This document shows, one piece after another, positions 7,097 to 62,820 of a stretch of DNA of 64,000 nt. Within the stretch, counting starts at the first letter, position 1. Each line of letters opens with the position of its first letter. The notes beneath the pieces are model-generated. The model had not been told where the DNA came from and ran no database searches. It saw only the letters and a list, made by a program, of their open reading frames with translations. The stretch comes from a virus. The stretch covers positions 108,796-172,795 of the IMG/VR virus record IMGVR_UViG_3300034196_000067; one strand, 5' to 3'. Made by a program: the position numbers and the translations under genes.

Positions 7097-7105
7097 GCGA
7101 TAAGA
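7097..7105 (+). promoter_or_regulatory. GCGATAAGA promoter-like motif
   Basis: Recurrent element; ends 51 nt before the AAA ATPase start. Confidence 0.3.
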
Positions 7106-7155
7106 GGATGCGAAGGAATTCTTCCTTTGCTTACCAGCAACTCACCGAGAGGGAC

Positions 7156-8598
7156 ATGGCTAATAACGTAATCAAGAAGATCCAGGACGTGGTGGCGACT
7201 CGGGGGGATGAGATGACCGACGCGCAGAAGCGCGAGATCGACGAGAACTATCGTCAGATCGCGGAAGGGATCGCTGCGCGTGTCGAGGCGAAGGACCTGC
7301 CCAAGGTCGCCACCTGGCTCACGAAGATGAGCAAGGCGGCGGAGCAGGTTGTGTCCTTCCACGAGGCCTTCGACACCTTCCCGTTCGATGGCGCTGTCGC
7401 GTTCTTCAACGCGATGCAGGAGAAGTTCGGATTCGTCGAGCACCTGGCGCGGCAGTCCTTCTTCGGCTCGTCGCCGCCTCCGATGATCGGAGTCGAGATC
7501 GGGCCCGGCGAGACGGTCCAGGTCCCGTGGGGAGAGTTCGCTCTCCCCGGCTACGAAGAACTCATCATCAGCGTCGGGACTCACGCCAACAAGGACGGGT
7601 TCCACTTCTGCATCTCCGGCCAGGTGAAGACCAAGGATCGGGATGTCGTCACCCAGATCGCCACACTCATCCGCAAGAACCTCAAGGAGAAGAGCATCTA
7701 CAAGGGGAAGGCCATCCGCCTTCACTTCGACGAGGACTTCGATCCGGAGACGTACTCTCCGGACGACGTGGCACCGACCTTCCTCGATCTCTCGTCGATC
7801 AGCCCGGACGAGCTCATCCTGCCCGCCTCGGTGAAGAAGATGGTGCAGGACAGCCTCTTCACCCCGGTGGAGAAGACGGAGATGTGCCGGAAGTTCGGCA
7901 TCCGAATCGGCCGCAAGGCCCTGCTCGCTGGCACCTACGGCGTCGGCAAGACGCTCACCGCCAACGTGCTGGCGCAGAAGGCCACCCAGCAGCCCCAGCC
8001 CTGGACGTTCATCTACCTGGACAACGTCCGTGACCTCGCGCACGGCCTCCGGATGGCCAAGCACTACACTCCGGCCATCATCTTCGCCGAGGACATCGAT
8101 GCTGTGATGTCCGGGACGGAGCGGACCGACGAGATGAACGAGGTGCTCAACTCCATCGACGGCATCGAGATCAAGGGCAAGGAGATCATGGTGGTCCTCA
8201 CCACCAACCACGTCGAGCGCATCAACCAGGCCATGATCCGGCCCGGCCGCGTCGACGCTCTGATCGAGGTGACTCCGCCCGACGCCAAGGCGGCCGAGCA
8301 GCTCCTGCGGGTCTACGGCAAGAGCTTCATCGCCGCGACCGAGGATCTCAGCCAGGTCGGCAAGAGCCTGGACGGACAGCGGCCGGCGAGCATCGCGGAG
8401 GTCGTGGAGCGCTCCAAGCTCTCCGCCATCACGCGGCTCTCTCCTGGAGAGCCTCTCAGCATCACCCAGGAGGACCTGCTGAGCGCGAGCGAGAGCCTCA
8501 AGAAGCACATCGAGCTCGTCGATCGCAAGACGGTGGAAGAGCGGAAGAAGCCGAAGTCCAACGGTGTGGCCCACGGCGAGTCTCTCGCCGAGGCCTGA
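7156..8598 (+). CDS. AAA+ ATPase (classic AAA clade) with unique N-terminal domain
   Basis: Walker A GTYGVGKT, Walker B IIFAEDID, second region of homology RPGRVD. Confidence 0.8.
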   Translation: MANNVIKKIQDVVATRGDEMTDAQKREIDENYRQIAEGIAARVEAKDLPKVATWLTKMSKAAEQVVSFHEAFDTFPFDGAVAFFNAMQEKFGFVEHLARQSFFGSSPPPMIGVEIGPGETVQVPWGEFALPGYEELIISVGTHANKDGFHFCISGQVKTKDRDVVTQIATLIRKNLKEKSIYKGKAIRLHFDEDFDPETYSPDDVAPTFLDLSSISPDELILPASVKKMVQDSLFTPVEKTEMCRKFGIRIGRKALLAGTYGVGKTLTANVLAQKATQQPQPWTFIYLDNVRDLAHGLRMAKHYTPAIIFAEDIDAVMSGTERTDEMNEVLNSIDGIEIKGKEIMVVLTTNHVERINQAMIRPGRVDALIEVTPPDAKAAEQLLRVYGKSFIAATEDLSQVGKSLDGQRPASIAEVVERSKLSAITRLSPGEPLSITQEDLLSASESLKKHIELVDRKTVEERKKPKSNGVAHGESLAEA

Positions 8599-8604
8599 TT
8601 TCAG

Positions 8605-8632
8605 GAGGGGATGATCTTCATCCCCTCTTTTT
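8605..8632 (+). terminator. intrinsic terminator
   Basis: AGGGGATGA-TCTT-CATCCCCT stem-loop followed by TTTTT. Confidence 0.6.
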
Positions 8633-8644
8633 AGCTAGTCGTTT

Positions 8645-8716
8645 GGGGGCTAATGCACAAGGTGTGCAGTCCGACTGTCTATCGGATGTCGACGGGTTCA
8701 ATTCCCGTAGCCCTCG
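8645..8716 (+). tRNA. tRNA-Asp(GTC)
   Basis: Acceptor GGGGGCT/AGCCCTC, D TGCA..TGCA, anticodon stem TCCGA/TCGGA, loop CTGTCTA, T-arm ACGGG TTCAATT CCCGT. Confidence 0.8.
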
Positions 8717-8746
8717 CTCTCTACAAGTAAACTGACAGACTCGCGT

Positions 8747-8755
8747 GTCATAAGA
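8747..8755 (+). promoter_or_regulatory. GTCATAAGA promoter-like motif
   Basis: Ends 58 nt before the start at 8813. Confidence 0.3.
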
Positions 8756-8812
8756 AGGATGCAGAGGTTTTACCCAAACCGCTGTTTCCTTTAACTCATA
8801 CGAGGACATGAC

Positions 8813-61463: not shown

Positions 61464-61472
61464 GTCATAAGA
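61464..61472 (+). promoter_or_regulatory. GTCATAAGA promoter-like motif
   Basis: 39 nt before ATG 61511. Confidence 0.3.
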
Positions 61473-61510
61473 GTCCATGGAGATTCACCCCTAGTACAGT
61501 AGGAGAGAAC

Positions 61511-61993
61511 ATGACCGGACTGGAGAAGCTGAAGCTCTTCAAGGAGAAGTTTCTGCAACTCACTCGTCTGCAAGGGCGATCGGAGATCCCGTCGCAGATG
61601 AGAAAGCCGATCGAGGCTGCTCTGAAGGTGGTCACCAACCTTCAAATCGAAGCCCTCTTCCTGAAGCTGGGGGAGGCGAACTGGAGACCGAAGGAGACGA
61701 TGGAAGGGACCCTCAACGGCGCCATGTTCTCGGTGGCCTATACGCTTGGGAACTTCATCGATCGCTACGTCGCCGCTTCTGCGGAAGTCGATCCATGGGT
61801 GAAGCAGGCTGCTCCCTTCTTCGAGGAGCTGAAGGCTGTGGCTACTAGCCTCTACAGCGCTTCCACGGAGCCTGGGCAGGAGATCGGGGTCTCTCCGGAC
61901 GCCCCGTTGATGGAGCCGATCACCCGGGCGAGCTTCCCGGACATCGAAACAAACGCACTGGTTGGCGGTCTCATGACCGCATCCTCGAAGTAG
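61511..61993 (+). CDS. hypothetical protein
   Basis: GTAGGAGAGAAC then ATG. Confidence 0.5.
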   Translation: MTGLEKLKLFKEKFLQLTRLQGRSEIPSQMRKPIEAALKVVTNLQIEALFLKLGEANWRPKETMEGTLNGAMFSVAYTLGNFIDRYVAASAEVDPWVKQAAPFFEELKAVATSLYSASTEPGQEIGVSPDAPLMEPITRASFPDIETNALVGGLMTASSK

Positions 61994-62019
61994 GGCTTCT
62001 CTCGCTCTGAGTAGAAGCC

Positions 62020-62310
62020 ATGAAATACCTGATCGGCAGAGCAACAGTCCTTCTTCAAGGACTGATCTTTTCCAAGGTCGAGGTCATGGCAGTTTCAGAG
62101 GACGAGCAGGGAGTGGTCTTCTTCGAGTACCGAGGAGACCTCATTCTGCTCGTTCCTCCAGAGTCTCGACCGCTCTTGATTGAAGGGTTCCCGTTCGAGA
62201 CGAAGGTGGGAACTCTCCAACTCACCCCGTCCGCTCCTATGAGCGTTGCAGCACTGGCAGAGACTGGAAAGGTCGTAGCTCAACTCGTCTTCGGCAGGAG
62301 TACTACATGA
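62020..62310 (+). CDS. hypothetical protein
   Basis: ORF track. Confidence 0.45.
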   Translation: MKYLIGRATVLLQGLIFSKVEVMAVSEDEQGVVFFEYRGDLILLVPPESRPLLIEGFPFETKVGTLQLTPSAPMSVAALAETGKVVAQLVFGRSTT

Positions 62311-62750
62311 GGTCTTCTAAACTCACGACCGCGAACGTCGAAACCGTCTTCCAGAAGTGCCTCTTCCCCAAGGACCGGGCGGACTTCGACCACGCCATCG
62401 TGGTGGACGGCACGCAGGAGTGCTTCGCCTTCGAGGTGGAGAAGATCCAGGAGAACCGGGACCAGATTCACTCCATGCTCTCGGAGCTTCCGGAGTCGTT
62501 CATCGAAGGCGTCGGGGAAGGCGGGAGCTTCTTCCTGGCCGGCTTCGACCGGTACGGGAATGAGTGGGCGGCCCACCACGGGGAGATGGAGAAGCTGTTC
62601 GCGCTCGGCAAGGCGTCTGGAGACATCGAGGTGATCGTCGAGGATGGAGTCGGAGGTCTTCCCATCTTCCTGGTGACGATGGACTCGACCGAGAAGCTGG
62701 TTGGGAAGGGGTCTCACGCCTTCCACGAGCTGCGAGAAATTGGGGCCTAA
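62307..62750 (+). CDS. hypothetical protein
   Basis: ATGA overlap. Confidence 0.5.
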   Translation: MRSSKLTTANVETVFQKCLFPKDRADFDHAIVVDGTQECFAFEVEKIQENRDQIHSMLSELPESFIEGVGEGGSFFLAGFDRYGNEWAAHHGEMEKLFALGKASGDIEVIVEDGVGGLPIFLVTMDSTEKLVGKGSHAFHELREIGA

Positions 62751-62755
62751 CGGCT

Positions 62756-62779
62756 CCGGGGCGGATTTCCGCCCCTCTT
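62756..62779 (+). terminator. intrinsic terminator
   Basis: GGGGCGGA-TT-TCCGCCCC followed by TCTTAGCC. Confidence 0.5.
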
Positions 62780-62811
62780 AGCCCAAGATCGGCAAATGCA
62801 CTGAGGGTGCA

Positions 62812-62820
62812 GTCATAAGG
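62812..62820 (+). promoter_or_regulatory. GTCATAAGG promoter-like motif
   Basis: 22 nt before ATG 62842. Confidence 0.3.

Follow-up and report, generated by a model that had tools for sequence, protein, structure and literature searches.

Background

Extended -10 promoters read by sigma70 combine two blocks at a fixed spacer (TTGACA-N17-TGnTATAAT), and a T at position -7 and TTG in the -35 box are near-universal contacts of the housekeeping (group 1) sigmas. Group 3 sigmas read other pairs, such as TAAA-N15-GCCGATAA for sigma28 (FliA) and TTGAAA-N13-15-CCCCATNT for sigma32, and the -10 elements of Bacillus sigmaG and sigmaK start with CATA. T4-like phages carry units of a terminator and an early promoter beside small open reading frames (ORFs), the PeSL cassettes. 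Jumbo phages follow one of three strategies, using their own polymerases without a sigma, phage sigmas together with the host polymerase, or neither (PMC7824862), and there are reports of huge phages with a sigma70 of their own (PMC7162821); such reports make a phage-encoded sigma plausible in a phage of this kind. Here we describe an element, GCAAAT-N14-GKCATAAGR, that recurs ahead of genes in a 64,000-nucleotide stretch of viral DNA (positions 108,796 to 172,795 of the IMG/VR record IMGVR_UViG_3300034196_000067; hereafter the window). Its copies probably constitute one promoter class of a sub-clade of uncultivated huge phages, read by a sigma70-family factor other than a housekeeping sigma.

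Copies of the element and their two-block structure

A sequence-only reading of the window had listed nine near-identical 9-mers as copies of a candidate promoter, and all nine were located where it had placed them. Eight of these (7097, 8747, 19695, 30610, 55845, 60210, 61464 and 62812) lie between genes, in the orientation of the gene that follows, with 21-57 nt between their 3' end and a start codon that has a Shine-Dalgarno sequence, and they stand as a family; the ninth, on the minus strand at 43711, does not belong with them and is described further below. The eight copies, with the upstream box included, are as follows:

7077..7105, plus strand: putative promoter copy; GCAAAT box at 7077-7082, GCGATAAGA at 7097-7105; AAA+ ATPase gene (ATG at 7156, end at 8598) downstream
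8727..8755, plus strand: putative promoter copy; GTAAAC box, GTCATAAGA at 8747-8755; before the gene of a 338-aa coiled-coil protein, 8813-9829
19675..19703, plus strand: putative promoter copy; TCAAGA box, GGCATAAGA at 19695-19703; before an operon from 19741 (ligase-like protein, DUF4419, YpsA/SLOG and further genes)
30590..30618, plus strand: putative promoter copy; GGAAGT box, GTCATAAGA at 30610-30618; before the genes of the major vault protein (MVP; 30668-33223) and RtcB (33339-34520)
55825..55853, plus strand: putative promoter copy; ACAACT box, GTTATAAGA at 55845-55853; before a Cro/CI-type helix-turn-helix (HTH) gene, 55901-56104
60190..60218, plus strand: putative promoter copy, the closest to consensus (top score, 26.2 bits); GCAAAT box, GGCATAAGG at 60210-60218; before a small ORF, 60270-60404
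61444..61472, plus strand: putative promoter copy; GAAAGA box, GTCATAAGA at 61464-61472; after a hairpin with a T-run and before an operon, 61511-62750
62792..62820, plus strand: putative promoter copy; GCAAAT box, GTCATAAGG at 62812-62820; after a hairpin and before an ORF, 62842-63066

Sixteen sites, 11 from this genome and five from relatives, were aligned on ATAAG with offsets counted from its first A. The core columns consist of an invariant G at -3, followed by K, C (12/16), ATAAG and R. The alignment also revealed a second block that the sequence-only reading had missed, with G at -23 (12/16), C at -22 (11), A at -21 (16), A at -20 (15) and T at -18 (11). This GCAAAT block ends 14 nt upstream of the invariant G and the length of the spacer is constant in 13 of the 16 sites. 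In a leave-one-out analysis at the fixed position the upstream block scored within the top 0.03-11% of intergenic positions at all 11 in-genome sites (Fisher combined p = 3.6e-10). Since the block is significant at a fixed position the element was taken to be GCAAAT-N14-GKCATAAGR, and GNYATAAGR was used as the scan pattern for its -10-like core.

The core is stringent. Of 11 exact GKCATAAGR copies 10 lie upstream of genes, as against none of 25 variants with a single base changed in G(-3) or ATAAG, and GKCATAA followed by any base other than G is never found upstream of genes. Downstream of the core there is a purine at +10/+11 from the first A in 16/16 sites and a pyrimidine at +9 in 11/16. 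A pyrimidine-purine step 6-7 nt past a -10-like core is the usual context of a start site, and transcription would be expected to begin there. The CTCAG/CACAG pentamer that had been noted ahead of the 9-mers is present in 6/16 spacers against 7% in the background, for a pattern that was defined post hoc on data already seen, and CAG is present in 9/16 against 20%; the position is variable, and we regard it at best as a weak bias of the spacer.

Enrichment and placement of the motif

Exact protein look-ups matched the window to JGI contig 3300034159 Ga0370509_0000001 (209 kb, with its end near window position 56,859) and to contigs _102441 (109 kb), _1557 and _293389 of Logan run SRR10968273. 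Flanks taken from these overlapping contigs, whose overlaps are identical to the window, gave a 78.5-kb composite of 6.5 kb left flank, the 64-kb window and 8 kb right flank. Bare ATAAGA is not over-represented in the window (13 occurrences vs 10.9 expected). GNYATAAGR occurs nine times there against 2.3 expected, a count reached by 1 of 100 shuffles. All 12 GNYATAAGR matches in the composite are on the plus strand and 11 of them sit at -80..-16 of co-oriented starts, a zone comprising 5.5% of strand positions (binomial p = 1.5e-13). An unbiased k-mer count across 56 upstream regions ranked ATAAGA and CATAAG first among the 6-mers (9 of 14-15 occurrences, p ~1e-9), ahead of the Shine-Dalgarno sequence GGAGGA.

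The 8 kb right flank, which was unseen when the motif was defined, contains three further copies, as predicted, and these are intergenic and lie 45-50 nt before a start codon. The 6.5 kb left flank contains none, and neither does a 13-kb minus-strand operon that encodes the endolysin and its neighbours; with this operon free of copies, the motif would represent one promoter class among several. A search for long direct repeats around the promoters returned tRNA-derived families only.

Conservation in related phages

The AAA ATPase encoded behind the 7097 copy belongs to a cluster of homologues (54-61% identity) on long metagenomic contigs. In the relatives L008-L011 (54-57% GC) and in L019 both blocks are found ahead of this gene at equal spacing, and its upstream neighbour varies among them, being a tRNA, a terminator or an acyl-carrier gene. 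A five-way upstream alignment of this phage with L008-L011 left GCAA, G..ATAAG and single columns at the ribosome-binding site and the start codon as the invariant intergenic columns. L019, a sixth genome outside the alignment, has GCAAT-N15-GGCATAAGT upstream of its AAA-ATPase orthologue, and in L008 CCAAAT-N14-GGCATAAGG stands ahead of the MVP orthologue. As the two blocks are kept across relatives, they mark a functional footprint common to the sub-clade and not a quirk of a single genome. The proposal that the element is a promoter is well supported, if indirectly: its position and orientation, the fixed second block, the pyrimidine-purine step downstream and its being the sole intergenic footprint in five phages and a sixth genome all argue for it.

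The motif is absent from more distant relatives (~50% GC). An IMG/VR scan with the AAA-ATPase alignment returned distant relatives only (48-50% GC), in which the motif is likewise absent, and an IMG/VR scan with MVP returned no match. The proposed specificity is supported in so far as the motif is common to a huge-phage sub-clade (54-58% GC) and missing from more distant relatives. The only phage records in which tblastn found an MVP, the metagenomic huge phages LR756500/501/503 (~40% identity), have a GC content of 24-32%, at which ATAAG is common noise, and they are therefore of no use for judging conservation of the motif. There was no match when 15 kb were compared at near identity with 50,697 phage records, or in a metagenome scan with the 20-mer CAGACTCGCGTGTCATAAGA, and literature searches on the motif strings returned primers and unrelated text only.

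A signal acting in the RNA leader, on processing or translation, or a chance or compositional artefact could likewise be found within ~60 nt of start codons, and the bare ATAAGA count would suit an artefact. The consensus RNA structure across sites has 0 pairs, however, the distance to the start codon is variable and the conserved upstream block would fall outside a leader, and chance is excluded by the placement statistics together with the cross-genome conservation. We give this explanation next to no credence.

Comparison with known promoter classes

When CATAAG is placed as the -10 hexamer the invariant G corresponds to the G of the extended -10 (TGn), the first A of ATAAG to -11 and GCAA to -34 to -31. 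In this register the element resembles extended -10 sigma70 promoters in having two blocks and a fixed spacer, the G of TGn, A at -11, an A/T-rich core, a pyrimidine-purine step 6-7 nt downstream and predicted leaders of 15-45 nt with a Shine-Dalgarno sequence, and its position upstream of and co-oriented with transcription units is that of sigma70-family promoters. It differs from them in that the upstream box is GCAAAT without TTG, the hexamer begins with C and ends in an invariant G instead of T, and the base past the hexamer is constrained as well (R). The sequence-only reading had stated that this does not look like a standard -35/-10 pair, which is right as regards sequence (no TTG, G at -7) but not as regards architecture, given a GCAAAT box 14 nt from the invariant G.

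Such an architecture would also be expected if the copies were ordinary host-type promoters read by the host housekeeping sigma, in which case the phage would simply carry strong versions of the consensus that prevails in some unstudied host lineage. The -35/extended -10 geometry, the A at -11 and the G at the position of TGn's G fit this explanation, as do the early-looking gene sets of small ORFs that each have a terminator and a promoter, for early genes need whichever polymerase is there at infection; in addition, no phage sigma was found in the window. Yet of the features of a group 1 promoter (TAnnnT, A at -11, T at -7, TTG) the A at -11 alone is present. Position -7 is G in 17/17 sites and variants there are unused, the established T and TTG contacts are missing, an E. 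coli-type consensus is not enriched (1 vs 2.3 expected at 54-64 kb), and relatives that are more distant and differ in GC content have lost the motif. With G in place of the near-universal T at -7, and with TTG lacking, we consider a housekeeping sigma unlikely.

Among the promoters of other sigmas those of group 3 appear to come closest, and we offer this likeness as a lead. Like the element, they have an A-rich -35 whose last bases are AAA and, ~15 nt further on, a -10 that carries a G/C prefix and contains (C/G)ATAA or CAT. At 7097 the sequence CAAA-N15-GCGATAA differs from the sigma28 -10 by one base. Most copies, however, have CATAAG and not CGATAA, with GATAA in 2/17 strong sites (7097 and L011:2435) and CATAAG in the rest, and the spacing differs by one from that of sigma28 promoters, CAAA-N15-G(K)C being one base too short. 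There is also no flagellar, heat-shock or sporulation context, and a cognate sigma was not found in the window.

With the late promoters of T4-type phages (TATAAATA; gp55, gp33 and the sliding clamp) and the promoters of group 2 jumbo-phage sigmas (PMC7824862) the element shares a stringent, A/T-rich -10-like block of 8-9 nt that is unlike the host consensus and sets apart phage genes of one temporal class. T4 late promoters lack a -35-like block, however, whereas the upstream block is significant here; their sequence differs from the CATAAGR core at 3/8 positions, the genes downstream of the element are early- or middle-looking and not structural, and the window holds no match to the gp55 or gp33 families.

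The likeness to PeSL cassettes is one of layout. Small ORFs at 59-72 kb each follow a T-run hairpin and a copy of the motif, and two copies 61 kb apart, at 8747 and L003:18432, share an exact identity of 22 nt, ACAGACTCGCGTGTCATAAGAA, that spans the spacer and the -10 (8734-8755 of the window and L003:18416-18437, window-equivalent 69926-69947); the genes downstream are unrelated. This suggests that promoter copies or whole units have been duplicated or exchanged. The promoter sequence itself is unrelated to that of the sigma70-type T4 early promoters.

Several other kinds of element were considered and rejected. The register is wrong for a DnaA box (TGTGNATAA), GG-N10-GC of sigma54 promoters is lacking, the orientation is wrong for the Bacteroidetes TTTG/TAnnTTTG consensus, and most copies are not beside tRNAs, as a tRNA 3'-flank signal would be; a homing-endonuclease target was rejected on reading the sequence.

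A candidate reading factor

Taken together, we favour the reading in which the copies serve a sub-clade of huge phages as promoters and are recognised by a non-housekeeping member of the sigma70 family, and we hold it with reasonable though far from complete confidence. A bacterial core RNA polymerase with such a factor would bind both blocks, sigma region 4 contacting the degenerate GCAAAT box at about -34 to -29 and sigma regions 2-3 the stringent G-K-C-A-T-A-A-G-R element at -14 to -6. The A/T-rich ATAA core would melt and transcription would start at the purine 6-7 nt downstream, producing leaders of ~15-45 nt with a GGAG-type ribosome-binding site. The 13-kb minus-strand operon and the left flank would use some other signal. 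The genes under this class include the AAA ATPase, the MVP-RtcB operon, an HTH regulator and a run of small ORFs with their own terminator-promoter units, and look like an early or middle set. Several copies come after hairpin and T-run terminators and ahead of single small ORFs (59-72 kb), a layout that, by analogy, is that of early-gene regions in large lytic phages.

Several observations weigh against this reading. The -35-like box is degenerate (ACAACT and AAAAAT are examples), the register of the hexamer follows from geometry only, and G at -7 and the missing TTG depart from every well-studied housekeeping consensus. The Myxococcota-like MVP is the sole hint at a host. A search of all called ORFs in the window against Pfam and PHROGs gave no match to Sigma70_r2/r3/r4, to gp55/gp33-like proteins or to an RNA polymerase, and neither the flank gene tables (precomputed Pfam) nor those of the relatives' loci listed a sigma or an RNA polymerase. 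These searches covered the window and its ~14.5 kb of flanks, in a genome of at least ~310 kb, a size that follows from the source contigs overlapping the window from opposite sides. A more specific proposal, that the reader is a so far unrecognised phage sigma or a sigma-remodelling factor that retargets the host RNA polymerase in this tRNA- and RNA-repair-rich clade, possibly on Myxococcota, is put forward tentatively.

The element might instead be the promoter of a sigma-free phage RNA polymerase, either a single-subunit enzyme like those of T7 and N4 (RNAPII) or a multisubunit enzyme like that of phiKZ, with the G of ATAAG or the next base at about +1. In its favour are a short, very stringent and A/T-rich core within a GC-rich genome, the likeness of ...TAAG followed by G/A-rich sequence to the initiation regions of T3, SP6 and Syn5, which we note as a lead, and the smaller part of the genome covered by the search; phiKZ-like jumbo phages (group 1) do encode their own polymerases (PMC7824862). 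T7-like promoters are recognised over ~17-23 contiguous bp from -17 to +6, however, whereas conservation here is confined to 6 + 9 nt around a non-conserved 14-nt spacer, and the second block sits upstream at a constant distance of 20 nt. The window and the gene tables of flanks and relatives yielded no RNA polymerase domain, and the window and the flank gene tables no phiKZ-like split beta/beta' subunits. The large ORFs by the AAA gene in relatives are structural-looking or have no family match and are not polymerase-like. A Pfam match to 'Gp80' in L008 was considered as a phiKZ polymerase subunit and rejected, as it is a podophage fibre/head protein. We think it improbable that the element is a promoter of this type.

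The scans with Pfam and PHROGs did identify two HTH regulators in the window, and the copies could be sites for a transcription factor and not for a polymerase, either an operator for the HTH proteins at 55.3-56.1 kb or an activator box of the kind used in T4 when MotA/AsiA appropriates sigma, the upstream block perhaps paralleling the MotA box at -30. The motif is asymmetric, however, strictly gene-oriented and kept a short, fixed distance from start codons, the palindromes by the HTH genes differ from it in sequence (GTACATGTAC), and a promoter would still be needed in regions that contain no other shared element; we think this very unlikely.

Weaker and stray matches

The two-block model pointed to three weaker candidates (58119, 59487 and 61034), all of which are intergenic and 46-52 nt ahead of a start codon; the first was left out when the model was built. 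Two exact cores that had not been listed before were also found, at about the level expected by chance (2.3 for GNYATAAGR in the window).

58096..58124, plus strand: weaker candidate; GCAATT box, GGTACAAGA; 16.8 bits; 48 nt 5' of gene 58167-58721
59464..59492, plus strand: weaker candidate; GCAAAA box, GCAATAAGA; 14.2 bits; 52 nt 5' of gene 59539-59910
61011..61039, plus strand: weaker candidate; GTGATAAGG, ACAAT box shifted by 1 nt; 46 nt 5' of gene 61080-61343
23388..23416 (match at 23408), plus strand: exact core GGCATAAGA with a poor upstream box
43616..43624, plus strand: exact core GGCATAAGG with a TCAAGA-N14 box; antisense within minus-strand gene 43312-43695
43711..43719, minus strand: TTAATAAGA, the ninth 9-mer of the sequence-only reading; at the TAA stop/ATG start junction of two minus-strand genes

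The match at 23408 falls within the final 26 nt of gene 22759-23433, 27 nt ahead of the next start at 23438, and may have arisen by chance or may act as an internal promoter. That at 43616 could be a chance match or an antisense promoter and was excluded from the family. The 43711 sequence was rejected as a member since two bases shared by all 16 aligned sites, G at -3 and A at -21, are missing from it and it has no upstream box.

Genome context

The window has a GC content of 58% and carries 42 tRNA genes in its first 18 kb (790-18143, plus strand), interspersed with HNH endonucleases. It also encodes two AAA+ ATPases and an RNA-repair set of RtcB, an RlaP nucleotidyltransferase, a cREC_REC domain protein, an Rv2179c-like exoribonuclease and a PNK-like AAA_33 protein (4506-5471, 17171-17674, 23438-23974, 33339-34520 for RtcB, and 41926-42336). 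A Ro60/TROVE gene adjoins the AAA ATPase in the relative L011 (L011:750-2363). A full-length tmRNA gene, not reported by ARAGORN, was identified at 37132-37510 on the plus strand (Rfam RF00023, 114 bits), between an acyl-carrier-like gene (36814-37089) and a gene at 37547-38014.

The MVP homologue (30668-33223, plus strand) has MVP_shoulder and Vault_3 domains, and its nearest relatives are MVPs of Kofleriaceae and other Myxococcota at ~55% identity. A scan of GTDB genomes found no close relative and so gave no hint at a host. Phage MVPs were already reported in a 2023 preprint (10.1101/2023.11.10.566534). Directly 5' of the MVP promoter lies a conserved string of genes (25795-30165, plus strand) encoding an AAA+ ATPase (539 aa), a DUF1257-like protein, a 661-aa protein without a family match and a DUF2997 protein.

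Palindromes at ~55250-55272 (TGTACGGTGTCTGTACA) and 55795-55810 (GTACATGTAC) flank the divergent Cro/CI-type HTH genes at 55292-55489 (minus strand) and 55901-56104 (plus strand) and are candidate operators, one of them sitting just 5' of the -35-like box of the 55845 copy. The minus-strand operon that lacks the motif encodes, besides a GH108 and PG_binding_3 endolysin (48475-49038, minus strand), an Acb2/Tad1-hairpin domain protein of the anti-CBASS/Thoeris sponge family (50051-50428, minus strand).

Significance

Almost all that is known of huge phages comes from metagenomes. That phages should have promoter classes of their own is expected, and the consensus described here would be a new one for a familiar kind of element, whose odd feature, to a transcription specialist, is the invariant G at -7. 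If the reader is an unrecognised phage sigma or a sigma-remodelling factor, as tentatively proposed above, the element would be half of a new sigma/promoter pair with an altered -10 pocket, accepting G at -7 where characterised housekeeping sigmas essentially all need T. A validated consensus would allow operons and temporal classes to be annotated from sequence in this clade, would offer a compact and stringent promoter for synthetic use, and would help to find the reader, whether this is a sigma or a polymerase of the phage or a host sigma that has been remodelled.

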